DNA of 64,000 nucleotides from an uncultured Planctomycetales bacterium (lineage in GTDB: Bacteria; Omnitrophota; Gorgyraeia; Zapsychrales; Fredricksoniimonadaceae): positions 155,709 to 219,708 of the forward strand of contig CAZOXU010000002.1 in assembly GCA_964583975.1 (NCBI GenBank), given 5' to 3'. The position numbers were made by a program, and so were the translations under genes. Shown one piece after another: positions 55,495 through 64,000 of the stretch (positions within the stretch are counted from its first letter, which is position 1; each line of letters starts with the position of its first letter). The notes below the pieces were generated by a model. It was given only the letters and a program-made list of their open reading frames with translations, ran no database searches and was not told where the DNA came from.

Positions 55495-56181
55495 TCAAAT
55501 TTGAAAATAGAGTTTAAGCATAAAAATCAAATGACGAAAGCCATCGCGCCAGGTTCTGATATGTGCCTTTCTTTCTTGGGGAGGAACATATAAGGTACAA
55601 GGAATTTCAACGATTTTAAGCTTCAAAATTCCTGCTTTTGCGATCAATTCTGAGGCAAACTCCATTCCTGTAGCCGTACATTGCATTTGATCGTAAGCTT
55701 TTTTAGTAAAACAACGCATGCCACAGTTCACATCGCCAACTTTAACCCTAAACAATTGGCTACAGATCCAAGATAAGACAGGAGTTCCTAGATAACGATG
55801 AAGAAATGGCATATTATGAGCGATTCGCTCACCTTGAAAACGATTACCTACGACAAAGTCGTACCCTTCTTGCAATTTTGCAATAAAGGGTCCCATTTGA
55901 CCTAAATCATAGCTTGTATCTGCATCGGCAAAAATAATCCAATCTCCCTGAGCGGATGCTATTCCCCCTCGAATAGCACTGCCATAGCCTTTAGGCTCTA
56001 TGTGTACCACCCTTACCCCTGCTTGCTTAGCAATTTTAACAGTTTCATCGTGTGATCCATTGTCAGCCACAATAATCTCGCCTTGAATCTTTAGGTTTCG
56101 CAAACCTTCTTGCGCCCTTGATATAACAGTAGCTATGGTTAGTTTTTCATTTAAAGCAGGAATAATAACAGAAAGGAACAT
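55495..56181 (-). CDS. GT2 polyprenol-phosphate glycosyltransferase (ArnC/GtrB/DPM1-like)
   Basis: SVIIPALNE ... ADNGSHDET ... FADADTSY motifs (DXD). 228 aa. Confidence 0.8.
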   Translation of the reverse strand: MFLSVIIPALNEKLTIATVISRAQEGLRNLKIQGEIIVADNGSHDETVKIAKQAGVRVVHIEPKGYGSAIRGGIASAQGDWIIFADADTSYDLGQMGPFIAKLQEGYDFVVGNRFQGERIAHNMPFLHRYLGTPVLSWICSQLFRVKVGDVNCGMRCFTKKAYDQMQCTATGMEFASELIAKAGILKLKIVEIPCTLYVPPQERKAHIRTWRDGFRHLIFMLKLYFQI

Positions 56182-56211
56182 TACCTCAGCAGCTCCACCA
56201 AACGAAGAAAT

Positions 56212-56287
56212 TGGTGGCGGGGAGAGGATTTAAACCTCCGACCTGTCGGGTATGAACCGAATGCTCTATCAGCTGAGCTACCCCGCC
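56212..56287 (-). tRNA. tRNA with CAT anticodon (elongator Met or lysidine-modified Ile2), CCA encoded
   Basis: GGCGGGG acceptor, anticodon arm TTCGG-TTCATAC-CCGAC. G1-C72 pair, so not an initiator. Unusual T-loop TTTAAAT. Confidence 0.7.
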
Positions 56288-56370
56288 ATAAATCACGAAG
56301 AAGTTAGAAATTATATTCGAGAAGAATGCAATATTCAAGCGATTTTCTAAAAGCCCTTTTTAGCTTAAAA

Positions 56371-57753
56371 TTATTTTGAACCGTTAGATTCTTTCAACAT
56401 CTTTTGTCGATCCAAACCTATTTTAAGCATGGCTGCGGCAGGATTTTCCGTGTAGTAACGACAAAACGTAGAGACTTCTTTGATCGTATGGATTTTTCGC
56501 TCATGCAAATTCTTAAGCACATTAGCGCGCATCCATGTTTCCATCATGATATCTCTGGGTGTTTGGCCAATTTCAGCTGCTAAACGATCGCGATAAATGG
56601 TACTTGGCGAATTCGCTATCACTCTTTTTTGCTCATAATTATATTTAAAAATTGGAGACAATAAAACCTTAGCATTCTCCATACCGCTTGTCTCTGAGAC
56701 TTCATCAACCACTCTGAAGATCTTTCCATCAATATGGTAGCGTTTTAAAATAACAAACACATCAATCAGATTAATTAGCATATCAGGCACATTCATGGGT
56801 TCATTGCCTAAACGGATGATCGCTTCCCTAGCGCTTAAAGCATGTATGGTCCCCATACAATATTTACCAATATTCACCGCTGTCATCATATCGCGCGCTT
56901 CTTCCCCACGAACTTCCCCTACAATCACTCTTTCAGGACGCATACGCAAACTATTTTTAACCAAATCAGACAGGCTCAAACTTTCATCAGTTTCAAGGCG
57001 TGAAGTGCTATCATCAAGAAAAGTATTTAATTCAAGGGTATCTTCAATAACAACCAAACGGTCCTTGGCGGGAATAAATCCTAACAAAGCATTCAGCAGG
57101 GTTGTCTTACCTGTTCCTGGACCGCCAGCAATGATTAGGTTTGCCGGCCGGATAGATAAACCTTCCATATATAACCACAGCTGGGCTGCCACCTCATAGC
57201 TCATACTGCCGCCTTGAATTAAATCTATAATACTTAACGGATCAACCTTGGCCTTGGTAATGGTCAATTGAGGACCTAAAGGAGTATCTATGATATTGAC
57301 TCGACCAGTCAAATTGGGAAGCTCAATATTGATGATTTTGTCATAACTACGACGGCCTGAGAATACAATTAATTTGTGAATAAAATTATCTAGCTCTTGT
57401 CGCGAGGTGAATTGTTTATTCGTACAAATAAATCCTTTTTGGGAATGATGAACATAAATGGGCTTGAGCGAATTAATAATAATGTCTTCGATTTCATAAT
57501 CGCACAGCAGCTCTTCAACCACTCCGTAGGAAAGGAAATTTTCAACAAAACGTGATTTATCTAATTCAGCCGAAGAATGTTCCTTTAAAACTTCTTCCAA
57601 AGCACCCATAACCAGAGCTCGCCTGTCAGGATCAGGCAAAAGCAAGGTCATACAACCTCTTAATTTATCTAATACCAATCTTTCTAATTCTAAGTTTTTT
57701 GTCCGCTGCATGATCTTATTATAGCTAATTATTCTTAGGCCGCCATTGATCAA
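56371..57753 (-). CDS. TadA/CpaF/VirB11-superfamily secretion ATPase
   Basis: Walker A IIAGGPGTGKTTLLNALLGFIP, Asp box RLVVIEDTLEL, Walker B/His box RMRPERVIVGEVRGEEA. ~180-aa N-terminal domain. Alternative start MQRTKNLE at 57711. Confidence 0.75.
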   Translation of the reverse strand: MINGGLRIISYNKIMQRTKNLELERLVLDKLRGCMTLLLPDPDRRALVMGALEEVLKEHSSAELDKSRFVENFLSYGVVEELLCDYEIEDIIINSLKPIYVHHSQKGFICTNKQFTSRQELDNFIHKLIVFSGRRSYDKIINIELPNLTGRVNIIDTPLGPQLTITKAKVDPLSIIDLIQGGSMSYEVAAQLWLYMEGLSIRPANLIIAGGPGTGKTTLLNALLGFIPAKDRLVVIEDTLELNTFLDDSTSRLETDESLSLSDLVKNSLRMRPERVIVGEVRGEEARDMMTAVNIGKYCMGTIHALSAREAIIRLGNEPMNVPDMLINLIDVFVILKRYHIDGKIFRVVDEVSETSGMENAKVLLSPIFKYNYEQKRVIANSPSTIYRDRLAAEIGQTPRDIMMETWMRANVLKNLHERKIHTIKEVSTFCRYYTENPAAAMLKIGLDRQKMLKESNGSK

Positions 57754-58264
57754 CGATTTTCTTTATATCTGTGGAAGAATTCCTGGCAATCTGCCCACAG
57801 ATAAAAATTAGTAAAGAAAATGGCCAAACATCCTCTGGAGCAACCAACAAACCTGCTGAAGTGTTTTCCTGTTCTTGTAAATGGCTACCATAGTACTTGA
57901 TGGCTTCATCTAATTTACCTTCAAACACATCCAAAGATGATGTTTTATTATTATATTTCAAAGAAGGCAAACCTACCCCTCTAACTAATAAGAAATTAAT
58001 CATGGAGTCACTGTCTAAATCTAGATGACCATCTGTTTGAAAACCTTTAAATTGAGGAATATTGGGAGGCAAAATCAATGAGGGTTTCTGAACCAACACC
58101 TCACCTTTTCTAACTACGGTATCACCCTCATTAATAGATGAGACTGACAAAAGAATATAAGGAACATGCGTATCAGCAAAAGTCTGTAAAGACATGATGC
58201 GGCTACGAATAATTTGGGTTTCTTTCAAAGCTTTATCAAAAGCTTCTTGAATATCCATAGGCAT
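57725..58264 (-). CDS. hypothetical protein (179 aa) immediately upstream of the secretion ATPase
   Basis: Clean ORF, no recognised motifs. Probably co-transcribed with the ATPase. Confidence 0.4.
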   Translation of the reverse strand: MPMDIQEAFDKALKETQIIRSRIMSLQTFADTHVPYILLSVSSINEGDTVVRKGEVLVQKPSLILPPNIPQFKGFQTDGHLDLDSDSMINFLLVRGVGLPSLKYNNKTSSLDVFEGKLDEAIKYYGSHLQEQENTSAGLLVAPEDVWPFSLLIFICGQIARNSSTDIKKIVDQWRPKNN

Positions 58265-58271
58265 AAAAAAA

Positions 58272-58358
58272 CGGAGAGGCAGAGATTCGAACTCTGGAAG
58301 GGCCTAAACCCTCAACGGTTTTCAAGACCGCCGCTTTCAACCACTCAGCCACCTCTCC
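58272..58358 (-). tRNA. tRNA-Ser (anticodon TGA), long variable arm
   Basis: GGAGAGGTGGCTGAGTGGTTGAAAGC 5' half (Ser-type D-arm). Anticodon arm GCGGT-CTTGAAA-ACCGT. 87 nt, no encoded CCA. Confidence 0.8.
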
Positions 58359-58377
58359 AAAATTGCTTTGTAAGGCG

Positions 58378-59022
58378 TTAATTATACACATCTTCCCTTT
58401 TTAAGGGAATGAAATTTGACCAAAACATTATTTGAGCCACATCTTTAAGTTGAAGGATTTTACATATCTTTTCAAGCCTCACACCCTGACTAAATAAATC
58501 TTTAGCCCTCTCTAAACGTCGCCCTCCTCTGATTACACGTGGCGGCAACATTAACAAAACAATATGCAAAGTCGGATTATCATTTATAAAGCCTATTTTA
58601 ATGCCATATTCTAGTACTTCTCTAAGCAATACAATACTCAAATTAACAACTTTTGGCTTAACGTCTTTAACCAATTCAGCTTTATATCCTTCAATAACAG
58701 CTGGTGTCACTTCAGATAATTTCTTAACCTGAGGATATACTCTAAGCAAGAAATTAGAAAAATGTTGGCAAGTTAATGCGAAGCGCTTGAGACTTTTAGG
58801 TGAAAACTCTCCCTTTGCGTACTCTAGAAATTGCTGAAAAAAGACTCTTACTTCTATTTCACGAACAACTGTTAAAGCTTCTCCCTTAGAAATCTTGGCT
58901 TCAATCTCTTGGAGCATTTTATGCGCTTGTTGTTCATCGCTACCTGCCAACTGAGAATACATTAGGCCACGTGCAAAGAATTCAATGTAATAAACATCAT
59001 CTATTTTACGTATTTGTCCCAT
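58378..59022 (-). pseudogene. truncated tyrosine integrase (arm-binding and SAM-like core-binding domains only; catalytic domain missing)
   Basis: 214 aa. N-terminus IRKIDDVYYIEFFARG (arm-type DNA-binding), then a SAM-like core-binding region (FFQQFLEYAKGEFSPKSLKRFALTCQHFSNFL...VTPAVIEGYKAEL). No RHRY catalytic domain. Sits 20 nt from tRNA-Ser. Confidence 0.55.
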
Positions 59023-59107
59023 AACTTTTACCTTTAAAAGTTGGTTATTATATCAAAATAGAAATAAAATAGTCTAGAAAACTGCTCGCCATGGGATATT
59101 ATTAATC

Positions 59108-60538
59108 ATGCTTTTTAACTCATTTGAATTCCTGGTATTTTTTGTCCTGGTTTACGGACTTTATCTGTGCCTTAAACACCGAGCTCAAAATTGGCTTTTA
59201 ATCATTGCTAGTTGCCTCTTTTATGCCGCCTGGAGCTGGAAATTCCTTTTTTTGATGTTCGCTTCTATAAGCACGGATTTTTGGTGTAGTCATTGGATTG
59301 CCCGCACCCAGGATGTTCGAAGAAGACGCCTCTACTTAGGCATAAGTATCGGTGTTAATTTAGGCATCCTCGGATTCTTTAAATACTTTAATTTCTTTAT
59401 TAGCAATTTCCAAGACCTTCTTTTGGGGATGGGATTCCTATCTTCTTCAACCCGCTGGATGATTGATATTATTCTTCCTTTAGGCATTTCATTTTATACG
59501 TTTGAAGCAATTTCCTATGTGGTGGATGTGTACAAAAGAAAAGTTAAGCCTGCCGATAATTATTGGGATTATGTGCTTTTTGTGATCTATTTCCCCCATT
59601 TAATTGCTGGACCCATTATGCGGGCTAAGAATTTTATTCCTCAGGTGGCCCTTCCTAGAAAAATTACTCTAACTGGATTCTATGAAGGATGTTTTCTCTT
59701 TTTCTGGGGACTGTTTGAGAAAATATTTATTGCAGATAATTTAGCCAAATTTGTAGATCCTATTTTTGCTGCTAACGCTCCTTACAATGGAGAAAAAGTC
59801 CTTTTGGCCCTTTATGCATTTGCTTTTCAAATCCTTTGTGATTTTGATGGGTATTCCAACATGGCCCGTGGTATGGGCAAATGCATGGGCTTTGATATAG
59901 CTGTTAACTTTAGGCAACCTTATTTTTCGACAAATCCACGGGAATTTTGGCAAAGATGGCATATCACTCTTTCTTCATGGCTAAGAGATTATGTGTACAT
60001 CCCTTTAGGAGGAAATCGTCAAAATACAATCCGAACCTATCTCAATCTCTTTTTGACCATGCTCATAGGAGGCTTGTGGCATGGAGCTTCTTGGACATTT
60101 GTTCTTTGGGGCGCCTACCAAGGAACCCTATTGGTAATACATAGACTTTTAGAACCCTTTCTACAACGATCCCGACCAACCCTTCCCTTACTGGTTGAAA
60201 AGGCTTGGAAAGCAGTCAAAATCCTTTTCTTTTTTCAATTCATTTGTTTAGGTTGGCTACTGTTTCGTTGCACTTCTCTACGACAAGCCAGCGAAATGTT
60301 GGCAGCCATTGGTCATTTTTTAAGTTTTCCTACATGGACACCCGTAGACTTCTGGCTTCCTGCTCTGGGAATTTTCCTCGCTATGTTTGTGGGATTCTTT
60401 CAATACAAAACCGACAATCCAACAGCTCTTTTGCAATGGCCATGGTGGCTAAGAACAATATTCTATATTACATGCTATTTTCTAATTATTTTCTTGGGGT
60501 GCGAAGGTGGAAAAGAATTCATTTATTTCCAATTTTAA
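59108..60538 (+). CDS. MBOAT-family membrane O-acyltransferase (AlgI/DltB/PatA-like)
   Basis: 476 aa. [12 protein letters not shown] N-terminus and the conserved His region ([22 protein letters not shown]) typical of AlgI/DltB. Confidence 0.85.
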   Translation: [476 protein letters not shown]

Positions 60539-61520
60539 AAAGATACCTTTAGCAGCGACAGCTGCACTATTGTTCGTATTGCTGTTTGAAGCTTTTAATG
60601 TGGCTTTTGACCGCCGCATGGATGAATTTCCTTATGATGGCCTCTTTATTACAATCAAAAATAAAATCTCCCAGACAAAAGATACAAATTTTGATGTGTT
60701 GATCATGGGAGACTGCTTTAATCTAGAAGGTGTTAATGCCCGACTCATTGAAAATGCTACTGGTCTTAAAACATTTAATTATGCTACCTTCTCCAATCAT
60801 ACCGTTGTCTCATCCTATCTTCTTCTCAAGAACCATTTACAGCACAATAGTAAAAAACCTCGCTACATTGTCATGAATTTTATCCCTGAACCAACAGCCA
60901 TATCAGAGAAGAATTTCTATCAAAAACATTTGCCATTTATGTTTCATATGAAAGATGGAAACTTTATTTCTTTTACCAATGAGCTAGGGTTTAATAAAGC
61001 CGTTCAATTACAAATTCCTTCCTTAAAGAATAGGGATTTCTTTCTTAAAGGAAGATTTACAAAGGGTTTGGCTACGAGTCAAGAAATTAAAGATTTTGAA
61101 AATAATCTAATAGTGAACCGAGGACAATATACTCGCCATCAAACAGAAAGCTATCTTAACTGCCTGCCTCCTACCAGCCTTGTTTTTAATTATCAACCAA
61201 GCCTGTTTTTTTTAAAGTACTTACATAAAATCTTGGATTTAGCCAAGGCCAACAATATCATTGTCTTGTTTCCAATGTTTAGCGCACCTGAGGATATGTA
61301 TAACAATCTCTATGCCACCTCCCATATCCCAGAAATATACTTTAATCTCTTGGTTGAACTTAAGAAACAATACCCCAATCTTGTGTTCTGGGGATGGCAG
61401 GACGACTTTTCAGATCGTGGATTATATCGGGATTGTATTCATTTGAATCAGAAAGGGTCTACGATGATGAGTCAAAAACTTGCTGATATTATTCTAACTA
61501 TTAATAACAAAACGCATTAA
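60507..61520 (+). CDS. membrane-anchored partner of MBOAT (AlgJ/DltD/PatB-like SGNH-type), with GDC in place of GDS
   Basis: 337 aa with an N-terminal TM anchor. Block I VLIMGDCFN (Cys where SGNH enzymes have the Ser nucleophile). C-terminal DCIHLN (DxxH block V). Overlaps the MBOAT gene by 32 nt. Confidence 0.55.
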   Translation: MEKNSFISNFKKIPLAATAALLFVLLFEAFNVAFDRRMDEFPYDGLFITIKNKISQTKDTNFDVLIMGDCFNLEGVNARLIENATGLKTFNYATFSNHTVVSSYLLLKNHLQHNSKKPRYIVMNFIPEPTAISEKNFYQKHLPFMFHMKDGNFISFTNELGFNKAVQLQIPSLKNRDFFLKGRFTKGLATSQEIKDFENNLIVNRGQYTRHQTESYLNCLPPTSLVFNYQPSLFFLKYLHKILDLAKANNIIVLFPMFSAPEDMYNNLYATSHIPEIYFNLLVELKKQYPNLVFWGWQDDFSDRGLYRDCIHLNQKGSTMMSQKLADIILTINNKTH

Positions 61521-61599
61521 TGGCGCTCTGCTTCGCTAAAGCTTCGCAGAACCTGTTCCTACGAAGCTCAAATGTAAAAAACATTTGAGCGAAGTAGAA

Positions 61600-61688
61600 C
61601 GGAGAGGGTGAGATTTGAACTCACGGTCCGACTTACGCCGGACAACGGTTTTCGAGACCGCCCTATTCAACCACTCTAGCACCTCTCC
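61600..61688 (-). tRNA. tRNA-Ser (anticodon CGA), long variable arm
   Basis: GGAGAGGTGCTAGAGTGGTTGAATAGGGC 5' half. Anticodon arm GCGGT-CTCGAAA-ACCGT. 89 nt, no encoded CCA. Confidence 0.8.
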
Positions 61689-61722
61689 AAAAAACGAATG
61701 TTTTTTGGATTCCGAGCCTAAC

Positions 61723-61998
61723 TTAAGGCGAGGAATCAAATCTATTAATTTGCACTAAGCTTAAGGATAACTTTTTCTCTCTAGAAAATCTCTTTACTTC
61801 CTTCTCCCGTTTACGTGCTTCATTATAACTACCACAAATCTCTTGATACATCAGCTGCACTGGTCCTCTAAACTTTGTATATCTGCACGCACGTCCTTTA
61901 TTATGCAAACCTACTCGTTTATCTACATCTACAGCTATACCCACATATAAATCACCTGTTCGGCATTCAATGATATAAAGTGACCATTGTTCTTCCAT
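61723..61998 (-). CDS. small GIY-YIG nuclease family protein (YhbQ/UPF0213-like)
   Basis: WSLYIIECRTGDLYVGIAVDVDKRVGLHNKG ... YNEARKREKEVKRFSREKK fits the GIY-YIG core. Start placed at MEEQW (61998). The ORF-track extension to 62070 runs into a GC-rich repeat. Confidence 0.65.
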   Translation of the reverse strand: MEEQWSLYIIECRTGDLYVGIAVDVDKRVGLHNKGRACRYTKFRGPVQLMYQEICGSYNEARKREKEVKRFSREKKLSLSLVQINRFDSSP

Positions 61999-62127
61999 AA
62001 CAGATTTCTCACCAGTTAGATCTCTCGCTTCGCTCGAGACCTTCGCGCCTTCGGCGCTCGGCTCTGCCACCTCTCCAATCCGCCTAAGGCGGATTGGATC
62101 CCGAGCTCAACCTAAAGCGAGGGATCC

Positions 62128-63405
62128 TTAAGTATTTTTCTTAATAATATCCACCCCACCCATATATGGGCGAAGGACCTCAGGGACAATAACATTCCCT
62201 TCCTTGGTCTGATAGTTTTCTAGGATGGCAATCATGGTACGAGGCAGGGCAACGCCAGAACCGTTGAGGGTATGGACAAAACCTTTTTTCTTACCGTCTT
62301 TACCTTTATAAGAAATATTGGCCCGACGGGCTTGAAAATCTTCAAAATTAGAACAGCTAGAAGCTTCTAACCATTTATCAAGGCCTGCTGCATAAACTTC
62401 AATGTCATAACATTTAGCAGCTGCAAAGCTTAAATCACCACTCGCCAATAAAAGAACACGATACGGGATATTAAGCAACTCAAAAACCTTGGTGGCATTA
62501 GCAAGCAAGGCCTCTAATTCATTATAGGAATTCTCGGGACGGACAAATTTGACTAATTCGACCTTATCAAACTGATGGACTCTTACTAGCCCCCTTGTAT
62601 CCTTACCATAAGACCCTGCTTCACGACGAAAACACGTTGTGTATGCTGTGTAATAGATAGGCAATTCTTCTTCGGTTAGAGTTTCATCACGATGAATATT
62701 AGTCACAGGAACTTCTGCAGTTGGAATTAAGTATAAATCATCATCTTGCAGATGATACATATCTTCCTTCATCTTGGGCAACTGACCAGTGCCGGTCATA
62801 GAAGCTGTATTAACCAAGACTGGCGGAGCCATTTCCTTATAACCATGCTTCGAAGTATGCAGATCCAACATAAAGTTATATAAAGCACGCTCCAGGCGAG
62901 CACCTAGCCCCTTATATAAAATAAAGTTAGAACCACTCAATTTCGTACCTCGTTTAAAATCAATAATATCTAGTTCTTCAGCAATTTCGATATGGGTTTT
63001 AGGCTTAAAGTCTAAACTGGGTTTCTTTCCCCAAATGTTCACTTCTTTATTAAGTTCAGGACTTCCTACCGGGACTGACGAATGAGGCAGATTTGGAATC
63101 ATTAAAAGAACATGACTCATCTCTTCTTCGATCTTCTTTATAACAGGATCTATAGCATCAATTTGCGAGGCTATAGCCTTCATGGAAGCAATTTTCATCT
63201 TAGGATCAAGCTTATCTTTAACCATGCGGCCAATCTCTTCATTCGCAGCATTTTTCTGGGCTTTTAATTCATCAAGCTCCATAATCAGGCTACGGCGATC
63301 GCCATCCAATTTTAAAAGACGCCCTAAATCAAGCTGGACCCTTTTTGCTTCTAGGCCGGCTTTAACTTTATCTGTATTTTCGCGGATATATTTGAGATCT
63401 AACAT
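62128..63405 (-). CDS. serS: serine--tRNA ligase
   Basis: 425 aa. N-terminal coiled-coil arm and class II motifs (FRREAGS, GSGVALPRTMIAILENYQ). Confidence 0.9.
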   Translation of the reverse strand: MLDLKYIRENTDKVKAGLEAKRVQLDLGRLLKLDGDRRSLIMELDELKAQKNAANEEIGRMVKDKLDPKMKIASMKAIASQIDAIDPVIKKIEEEMSHVLLMIPNLPHSSVPVGSPELNKEVNIWGKKPSLDFKPKTHIEIAEELDIIDFKRGTKLSGSNFILYKGLGARLERALYNFMLDLHTSKHGYKEMAPPVLVNTASMTGTGQLPKMKEDMYHLQDDDLYLIPTAEVPVTNIHRDETLTEEELPIYYTAYTTCFRREAGSYGKDTRGLVRVHQFDKVELVKFVRPENSYNELEALLANATKVFELLNIPYRVLLLASGDLSFAAAKCYDIEVYAAGLDKWLEASSCSNFEDFQARRANISYKGKDGKKKGFVHTLNGSGVALPRTMIAILENYQTKEGNVIVPEVLRPYMGGVDIIKKNT

Positions 63406-63438
63406 AAGCGGATATAGTATCTTAACCGACGAGGGCTG

Positions 63439-64000
63439 TCAATTTATTCTGTGTCCTGGAAGAGATGTGCTTCCTGTCTTTGTAGCATAAGGATTTGAGG
63501 AGCGAGTACTTAAAGAACCACAATTTACATCTGATGGATTCAAACAAGTTTCAAGAGTAACTTTAAATAAGGCCTCTTGCTGACCAGATTGCTGTGCATT
63601 AATTCTTAATTCTGTTACTGGTTTCACTTTTAGAGCGCCCACCAACCTATAATTAGTATCTGTTGAACTACAAGCTCCAGGCTGACTACTCGTTTGATAA
63701 CATGAACTATTAGGAAGACATGTGGCATCAAAGCTTTTTACACAAGAATAAAGATTGCTACTTATGAATGTATAGCAAACCCAACGATGATTTGAATCTG
63801 GAAAAGCTTCATCAAAAGTACCATCAGTTTTCAAATTCTGATGAATACAGAAAGTGTTAGGATCACCCGATGGCAAATCAGCAATGGATATATTCCCAGA
63901 ATTCCAGCTTGCTATGGAGGCCCCTGTTGAATCTATATTTGTTATACTACTAATACCTACAAAACCAGGATTATCTGGTGTCCCATAAGCTTGAAAAGCA
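63439..64000 (-). CDS. Cys-rich exported/surface protein, C-terminal part (N-terminus beyond window)
   Basis: The frame stays open upstream of the track's TTG start all the way to the window edge (manual translation ...AFQAYGTPDNPGFVGISSITNIDSTGASIASWNSGNISIADLPSGDPNTF...). About 12 Cys, Ser/Thr/Asn-rich. Confidence 0.45.
   Translation of the reverse strand, partial: AFQAYGTPDNPGFVGISSITNIDSTGASIASWNSGNISIADLPSGDPNTFCIHQNLKTDGTFDEAFPDSNHRWVCYTFISSNLYSCVKSFDATCLPNSSCYQTSSQPGACSSTDTNYRLVGALKVKPVTELRINAQQSGQQEALFKVTLETCLNPSDVNCGSLSTRSSNPYATKTGSTSLPGHRIN

Follow-up and report, generated by a model that had tools for sequence, protein, structure and literature searches.

How did two genes that run against the direction of their neighbours come to lie between two tRNA-Ser genes and beside an integrase-like open reading frame (ORF), and what would they do there? 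The locus in question, at positions 58271 to 61689, belongs to a stretch of DNA of 64,000 nt (the window); labels beginning with L or P denote loci, contigs or proteins of relatives. It contains a gene for a membrane-bound O-acyltransferase (MBOAT), an overlapping gene for a membrane-anchored partner protein, and an ORF of 214 aa, here called int214. An earlier note on this DNA had taken int214 for a decayed integrase and the pair of genes for an O-acylation module that was acquired on a now fixed integrative element and whose partner may use a Cys as its nucleophile. We consider it likely that the two genes form a cassette inserted in reverse between tRNA-Ser(CGA) and the start of int214, that this cassette acylates an extracytoplasmic glycan through Cys70 of the partner, and that int214 is an old gene that did not deliver it. 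The features of the locus are as follows.

58271..58359, minus strand: tRNA-Ser(TGA) (ARAGORN; Rfam RF00005, 61.2 bits), part of a conserved core arrangement
58378..59022, minus strand: int214, 214 aa, a putative catalytically dead descendant of tyrosine integrases
59023..61526: lineage-specific insertion of 2,504 bp, delimited by aligning its flanks to the empty site of L037
59023..59107: leader of 85 nt between the divergent int214 and MBOAT genes
59108..60538, plus strand: MBOAT acyltransferase, 476 aa (PF03062)
60507..60538, plus strand: dual-coding overlap of the MBOAT and partner genes, 32 nt
60507..61520, plus strand: SGNH-fold membrane-anchored partner, 337 aa, DUF1574-like
61527..61598, minus strand: ancestral trailer of tRNA-Ser(cga), hairpin-rich and ending in AGCGAAGCAGA
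61599..61689, minus strand: tRNA-Ser(CGA) (ARAGORN; Rfam RF00005, 55.1 bits), its 3' end toward the insertion

The window has an extreme strand bias. The minus strand carries 46 of the 48 ORFs that are 150 aa or longer, and the MBOAT and partner genes, oriented opposite to all of these, are the only two on the plus strand. ARAGORN, Rfam and this strand count thus agree with the first claim of the earlier note, that two tRNA-Ser genes stand around the only plus-strand genes of the window. The closest homologues of every gene examined were found in metagenome-assembled genomes (MAGs) of Omnitrophota; the SerRS of the window is 80-85% identical to SerRS from such MAGs.

The acyltransferase pair and the cysteine of the partner

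The MBOAT scored 84.8 bits against PF03062, which is above the gathering threshold of 27. Its best resemblance was to DltB. It aligned to the DltB structures 6bug and 8jem with E values of about 1e-27, and both functional His residues are kept: His285 (59960-59962), in the motif RWH, is equivalent to H289 of DltB, and His325 (60080-60082), in GLWHG, is equivalent to H336 (GFWHG in DltB) and, as the universally conserved catalytic His, has its counterpart in H315 of CjPatA. The score against the DltB equivalog TIGR04091 was, however, 171.4 bits against a cutoff of 375, which leaves the protein outside this family. Its C-terminus reads FIYFQF (F471-F476, 60518-60535) and includes Tyr473. The same C-terminal motif was present in all seven MBOATs examined that are paired with a member of the partner family, namely that of the window and six homologues. 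A C-terminal FXYXXF motif has been described as an "acyl shuttle" in bacterial polymer-acylating MBOATs other than DltB (JBC 2025, PMC12148441). By auto-acetylation its invariant Tyr receives an acetyl group from acetyl-CoA, which it passes on to the SGNH partner, as determined experimentally for PatA; the PatA of N. gonorrhoeae ends in FIYANF (PMC12148441). No dltA, dltC or dltX was found in the interval between the tRNA-Ser genes. As both DltB-type His residues occur together with the FIYFQF end and with a DltB equivalog score below the cutoff, the MBOAT is predicted to be of the PatA/AlgI type, which uses an acyl-CoA donor and a built-in shuttle, and not a component of a Dlt system.

The partner gene directly followed the MBOAT gene in seven of seven cases (the window, L032, L033, the P0003 contig, L005, L038 and L039), usually with an overlap of 26-32 nt. 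This overlap is 32 nt in the window, L032 and L038 and 26 nt in L039. It is dual-coding: one frame specifies the acyl-shuttle motif of the MBOAT and the other the sequence MEKNSFISNFK of the partner. The N-terminus of the partner (MEKNSF..NFK) would be so conserved because the same nucleotides encode the shuttle motif. The neighbours of the homologous pairs include PMT_2, YfhO, GT2, NeuB, methyltransferase and sulfatase-family genes, and for this reason a surface polysaccharide or glycoconjugate is more likely to be the substrate than peptidoglycan. The most similar pair, whose MBOAT is 67% and whose partner is 55% identical, is found at another site in its own genome, between the genes for an H+-PPase and a PEBP, and the pair on the P0003 contig occurs in yet another context. 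The homologies, the motifs and the coupling together bear out the proposal that the two proteins constitute an O-acylation module. As a separate observation, an unannotated protein of 804 or 814 aa is encoded right after the Cys-type partner in L033 (2089-4503) and L038 (7054-9498). BLASTP showed no similarity between these two proteins, and neither has a homologue in the window.

The family of the partner is large and uncharacterised. While a k-mer protein search returned five homologues only, all with GDC, an exhaustive profile search returned 2212 relatives at E<=1e-3. Among 65 diverse relatives, 37 matched DUF1574 (E<=0.01), nine matched Lipase_GDSL_2, and DltD and ALGX were matched by one each; the Cys-type relative P0162 bears the NCBI name "DUF1574 family protein". 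The window partner had no match to the profiles of DltD (PF04914), PatB (DUF459) or AlgX (PF16822), none in a sequence search of the PDB and no meaningful one in NCBIfam. No relatives of the partner or of int214 turned up in the viral contigs, nothing was found in the metagenome contigs with the partner profile, and PADLOC matched none of the five proteins searched.

The AlphaFold model of the partner has a mean predicted local distance difference test score (pLDDT) of 75 and a predicted template modelling score (pTM) of 0.79. An N-terminal helix, residues 15-33, is followed by an alpha/beta domain; the helix is the transmembrane anchor (60549-60605), and the domain has the alpha/beta/alpha fold of SGNH proteins, with a large helical insertion at about residues 127-250. 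The longest structural alignments were to DltD (229 and 223 residues). The comparison with AlgX, DltD and PatB that the earlier note had proposed thus succeeded for DltD at the level of structure and failed for all three at the level of sequence profiles. In the profile of the 65 members, the D-x-x-H-L-N of the partner aligned with ADTIHL of DltD, DGIHL of OatA and RDRVHLN of the GDSL esterase 7ddy, and its LGD[S/C] was matched by GDS in two GDSL esterases, 7ddy and 8ik1. It should be noted that Pro14 (60546-60548), just before the anchor, and Glu28 (60588-60590), inside it, are conserved in at least 90% of these 65 members. Their conservation suggests that the anchor helix is engaged in a specific contact, for which the MBOAT may be the counterpart.

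Block I of the partner is G68-D69-C70 (60708-60716) in the context DVLIMGDCFNLE, the Cys codon being TGC at 60714-60716. Cys thus replaces the Ser of the Gly-Asp-Ser that is typical of SGNH enzymes. Block V retains the D-x-x-H pattern as D309-C-I-H312 (61431-61442), within RDCIHLNQ. Both the family alignment and the profile alignment therefore place a Cys at the block I nucleophile position next to a canonical block V, as had been predicted from the letters of the window. In the alignment of the query with 154 relatives (155 sequences), position 70 was occupied by Ser 97 times and by Cys 52 times, with gaps in the remaining 6, and no other residue occurred there; among the 150 family representatives nearest to the query, about one in three has Cys. 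G68 is invariant in the 149 sequences covering it and H312 in the 146 covering that position, while D309 was found in 116. No second Ser conserved throughout the family was found in this alignment. A neighbour-joining (NJ) tree gave Ser as the state at the root, with the Cys forms clustered around the query, and needed at least 12 changes between Ser and Cys as compared with about 39 for shuffled states. The named members of the Cys type are from Omnitrophota.

The column that holds only Ser and Cys, together with the invariant His, argues for an interchangeable catalytic nucleophile and not for a dead site, and the alignment supports well the view that Cys is a recurrent natural variant of the nucleophile in this DUF1574-like family. 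Reading Cys70 as the cysteine of a lipobox was rejected on account of its place at residue 70, downstream of the transmembrane helix, and of the Gly-Asp in front of it. No report of a Cys-type MBOAT partner was found in the literature. The only documented SGNH transferase using Cys that we found there is TviD, which needs its block I Cys18 and His253 (PMC8760489). The statement that a thiol nucleophile is unusual can thus be kept for partners of MBOATs; for the SGNH superfamily it has to be softened, given TviD and the share of Cys among the relatives.

The insertion and the gene beside it

The closest relative with available DNA is L037, whose int214 is 74% identical to that of the window. 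The order there is SerRS, 78 nt, tRNA-Ser(cga), 104 nt and int214, and this is an empty site. Homology to L037 covers the tRNA and its trailer as far as AGCGAAGCAGA (window 61537-61527), which in L037 abuts the ATG of int214, and it resumes at window position 59022, the ATG of the window int214. From these limits the insertion is placed at 59023-61526. Its 2,504 bp consist of the 85-nt leader, the MBOAT gene, the partner gene and a further 6 nt. The leader is not homologous to the region upstream of int214 in L037. Promoter-like hexamers were seen in it on the minus strand (59076->59047, 10 of 12 positions with TG) and on the plus strand (59075-59102, 9 of 12), as matches to the consensus only; a scan for promoters and terminators gave counts not above those of shuffled sequences. 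No partial copy of a tRNA was found within 59023-61598.

Compact sites free of cargo are also present in L002, L004 and L013, and the interval of 685 nt in L009 has one small ORF. Elsewhere the interval between tRNA-Ser and int214 is occupied by a GT-C-like membrane protein (L001), by a multi-glycosyltransferase of 2393 aa with another MBOAT and a Ser-type DUF1574-like partner (L005), or by small genes that are unrelated (L007 and L009). These comparisons of gene order indicate that the junction beside int214 is a recurrent insertion point for envelope-glycan genes and that the MBOAT pair is a recent insertion into it, which int214 did not deliver. Since int214 of the same family holds the same position in cargo-free genomes, it would long predate the insertion. 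The comparison with relatives thus showed the empty site that had been asked about, tRNA-Ser(cga) followed directly by int214. Of the earlier proposal of acquisition on a fixed integrative element, the acquisition is upheld by this empty site; the element is not, as int214 is older and dead and attachment (att) repeats were looked for and not found.

A second insertion may lie next to the first. A GIY-YIG ORF (61723-62070, minus strand; PF01541, E=2e-14), whose likely true start is at 61998, is located between SerRS and tRNA-Ser(cga), and none of the 31 related loci has it, nor does L037. It is surrounded by a direct repeat of about 75 nt (61673-61748 and 62057-62131), which consists of a hairpin, with compensatory changes between the copies, and the first ~15 nt of the tRNA. 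In the upstream remnant of the repeat the 5' end of the tRNA is of the L037 type, GGCAGAG, and the live tRNA has GCTAGAG. The region looks like an independent insertion that duplicated or replaced the 5' region of the tRNA. The heptamer GCGAAGC, with 12 copies in the window against 3.9 expected and three of them at 61530-62033, was considered as a lead to a binding site and dropped because its copies are scattered.

Int214 itself gave a weak match to the SAM-like family PF13102 (21.4 bits, cutoff 22.3) and the sole PHROG match among the proteins searched, to integrase (E=3e-8). Its first ~160 residues are 45-53% identical to proteins of 323-359 aa that pass PF00589, and both the arm-type N-domain and the core-binding (SAM-like) domain are present; int214 had no match to PF00589, the catalytic domain. 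Its full-length relatives contain, in their interior, about 110-130 aa that int214 has lost, Arg-I and the beta-hairpin Lys among them; about 45 C-terminal residues of the catalytic domain are kept. A simple truncation was rejected because of this C-terminal remnant. At the position of the nucleophile Tyr the family has W, Y or F. A search returned 110 proteins, with about 95 clusters of 213-217 aa from Omnitrophota that can be aligned over their full length with 45-100% identity; the proteins of 323-359 aa are among the other matches. The 17 copies examined at the DNA level were all intact, with no stops or frameshifts, and the ratio of nonsynonymous to synonymous substitution rates (dN/dS, Nei-Gojobori) was 0.07-0.15 for the closest pairs. 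The constant length, the intact copies and a dN/dS of about 0.1 leave the term "decayed" without support, although the integrase arm- and core-binding domains and the missing catalytic domain had been recognised correctly. Judged by these comparisons, int214 is a selected, catalytically dead integrase derivative that is kept by purifying selection beside tRNA-Ser genes. Its model (pLDDT 78) shows a three-stranded sheet with a helix, followed by the core-binding domain, and the structural matches include the non-catalytic recombinase-fold proteins MrpR (8a0a) and SroF (9rd5).

The surroundings of int214 were compared by a synteny scan with one genome per species (31 loci). In 14 loci a tRNA-Ser on the same strand was no more than 200 nt away from the int214 or integrase gene, and in 22 loci the distance was at most 10 kb. 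The order SerRS, tRNA-Ser, int214, tRNA-Ser, hyp179, T2SSE was present in L001, L002, L004, L007, L009, L013, L016 and L031, and int214 adjoined tRNA-Ser as in the window, where 19 nt separate its stop from tRNA-Ser(TGA), in L001, L008, L009, L013, L016, L022 and L025. In the compact loci int214 starts 8-17 nt past one tRNA-Ser (L002, L004, L013) and ends 12-30 nt ahead of another (L002, L009, L013). The isoacceptors are ordered cga-int214-tga in the window and L001 and tga-int214-cga in L002, L007, L008, L009 and L013; the two anticodons differ in one base. Two further integrase-like genes, 25-28% identical to int214, stand directly after the 3' ends of tRNA-Ser genes, in L002 (16482-16952, gct) and L012 (14088-14573, tga), and they are probably classical tRNA-Ser islands in genomes that bear int214. 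Because such more distant integrases lie right after other tRNA-Ser genes, the core arrangement plausibly descends from a very old integration at tRNA-Ser.

The neighbour hyp179 (57725-58264, minus strand) encodes 179 aa that had no match in Pfam, NCBIfam, PHROG or PADLOC and that are 56-81% conserved. It adjoins the tRNA-Ser/int214 block in L001, L002, L013, L016 and L031, and the window copy overlaps a T2SSE-type ATPase gene at the start of the latter.

Proposed mechanism and alternatives

Built on the observed homologies, motif positions, gene coupling, Ser/Cys alternation and insertion boundaries, the proposed relay, with its acyl donor, thioester intermediate and substrate, would run as follows. 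The MBOAT, by means of His325 and His285, would load an acyl group, most likely acetyl from acyl-CoA, onto its own Tyr473. The partner would be held by its single N-terminal anchor helix so that the SGNH domain is outside the cytoplasmic membrane. Cys70 of the partner, its thiol activated by His312 and Asp309, would take over the acyl group from Tyr473 to form a thioester and would hand it on to a hydroxyl of an extracytoplasmic glycan. The first two of these residue assignments have their basis in homology to systems studied by experiment, and the alternation of Ser and Cys is what suggests the thioester.

Several points weigh against this account of cassette and mechanism. On the side of the insertion, no recombinase that would explain it was found, no att-like or target-site repeats were present in 56000-64000, where only the two tRNAs resemble each other, and composition gave no anomaly (GC content 0.34-0.42 inside and 0.36-0.45 outside). 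Of the usual marks of a tRNA-linked island, the locus thus shows absence from the site in relatives; repeats, a functional integrase of its own and deviant composition are missing. On the side of the partner, the sole Pfam match of the window protein is DUF1574 (PF07611) with 27.9 bits against a cutoff of 29.1, so its membership appears borderline, at the edge of the family, and DUF1574 is listed in the SGNH clan without a known activity or structure (PMC9487903). The model is of medium confidence only (pLDDT as given above), and there is no clear GxND block for the oxyanion hole of SGNH blocks II/III, the residue conserved in at least 90% after strand 2 being N91. The acyl group and the acceptor are suggested by analogy and by the neighbourhood of the homologous pairs. 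Finally, int214 probably acts as a sequence-specific DNA-binding protein, a role read from its fold and conservation.

The first of the other explanations holds that the junction is an active integration hotspot that depends on int214, in which int214 serves as a targeting or architectural factor, a full-length integrase acts in trans and glycan cassettes are swapped. It would account for the different cargo in the interval of the window, L001, L005, L007 and L009 and for the lack of any in L002, L004, L013 and L037, and int214 does retain both DNA-binding domains. Yet the window junction has no repeats or recombination scars, the interval contains no partner recombinase, and cargo is variable also beyond int214 and in the stretch from SerRS to the tRNA, so that the place may be just a permissive intergenic region near tRNA genes. 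We regard this explanation as rather unlikely. An equally doubtful, broader reading joins both halves of the locus: the Cys clade would run a relay from Tyr-ester through Cys-thioester to sugar-ester, maybe tolerated or favoured in anaerobes such as Omnitrophota, and int214 would be a domesticated remnant that marks or services a hotspot of glycan cassettes.

Most SGNH proteins are hydrolases, and a further possibility is that the partner is an esterase (de-O-acylase) or a non-catalytic scaffold whose Cys70 takes no part in any reaction. DUF1574 having no characterised member and the partner model being of medium confidence leave some room for this. It is nevertheless improbable in view of the tight and conserved translational coupling to an MBOAT with the shuttle motif, of the Ser/Cys-only column with its invariant His, which would not be expected in a pseudoenzyme, and of the membrane anchor and extra helical insertion, in which the partner resembles the transferase DltD.

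The weakest explanation, that the interval is the fixed remnant of a single integrative element whose 214-aa integrase decayed after delivering the MBOAT pair, has in its favour the descent of int214 from tyrosine integrases, its classical position beside tRNA-Ser genes, the distant integrase genes that immediately follow other tRNA-Ser genes in L002 and L012 and the absence of the pair from the site in relatives, but it is very improbable and largely refuted by the empty L037 site that still carries int214, by the occurrence of int214 at the same position near SerRS and tRNA-Ser in cargo-free genomes, which makes it far older than the insertion, by one internal deletion and one length shared by about 95 clusters down to 45% identity with reading frames intact and under constraint, by the loss of Arg-I and Lys with a variable Tyr position, and by the lack of att repeats and of a GC anomaly.

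The reading preferred here, a glycan-acylating cassette beside an old int214, has some wider meaning. The natural Cys clade provides a ready test for the tuning of the second acyl-enzyme step, as thioester against oxyester and as transfer against hydrolysis. It also provides a handle for covalent trapping and a first functional hypothesis for DUF1574, although the precedent of TviD tempers this lead. An integrase fragment beside a tRNA is not automatically debris, int214 being a conserved gene whose product probably binds DNA.

Comparison with known systems

Pairs of an MBOAT and an SGNH protein decorate peptidoglycan, teichoic acids, alginate and cellulose and are targets for antivirulence agents; their mechanism, from an acyl-Tyr shuttle to an acyl-Ser, has been established only recently. 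For int214 the closest parallels are MrpR (YopR) of phage SPbeta and SroF of Phi3T, DNA-binding proteins with the fold of tyrosine recombinases and without recombinase activity (PMC10516654). MrpR is a prophage repressor that has the full fold of the catalytic domain, whereas int214 has lost most of this domain and is the product of a chromosomal gene that is linked to tRNA-Ser and conserved among Omnitrophota genomes.

The window pair resembles PatA/PatB in having a separate MBOAT with the catalytic His and the C-terminal FXYXXF Tyr shuttle (PMC12148441) and in having neither a carrier protein nor a DltX-like microprotein. It differs in that the partner is not a PatB (DUF459) by sequence, has Cys instead of Ser and contains the large helical insertion at about 127-250. 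With DltB/DltD it shares the best alignment of the MBOAT (E 1e-27, to DltB) and the type II anchor of DltD. Unlike DltB, however, the window MBOAT has its own shuttle motif, no dltA, dltC or dltX is adjacent, and the predicted nucleophile is Cys.

The systems for alginate (AlgI/AlgJ/AlgX) and cellulose (WssH/WssI) likewise combine an MBOAT with a periplasmic SGNH-like transferase that acts on an exopolysaccharide, and the glycan-locus context of the homologous pairs is similar. AlgJ and AlgX have a DxH block and a differently placed Ser (PMC9487903), whereas in the window partner the block I nucleophile comes first and the DxxH of block V follows; an AlgF-like gene is not present at the window locus.

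TviD, which acts on the Vi antigen, is an SGNH O-acetyltransferase that needs the block I Cys18 and the block V His (PMC8760489) and in this is like the window partner. It differs in having Gly-Ser-Cys where the window partner has Gly-Asp-Cys, in its TPR domain, and in working with a GT4 polymerase and not with an MBOAT; a sequence relationship between the two proteins is not detectable. By homology and motifs, the cassette is thus assigned to the known MBOAT-SGNH class, with a partner from an uncharacterised family in which a variant with Cys for Ser is recurrent.

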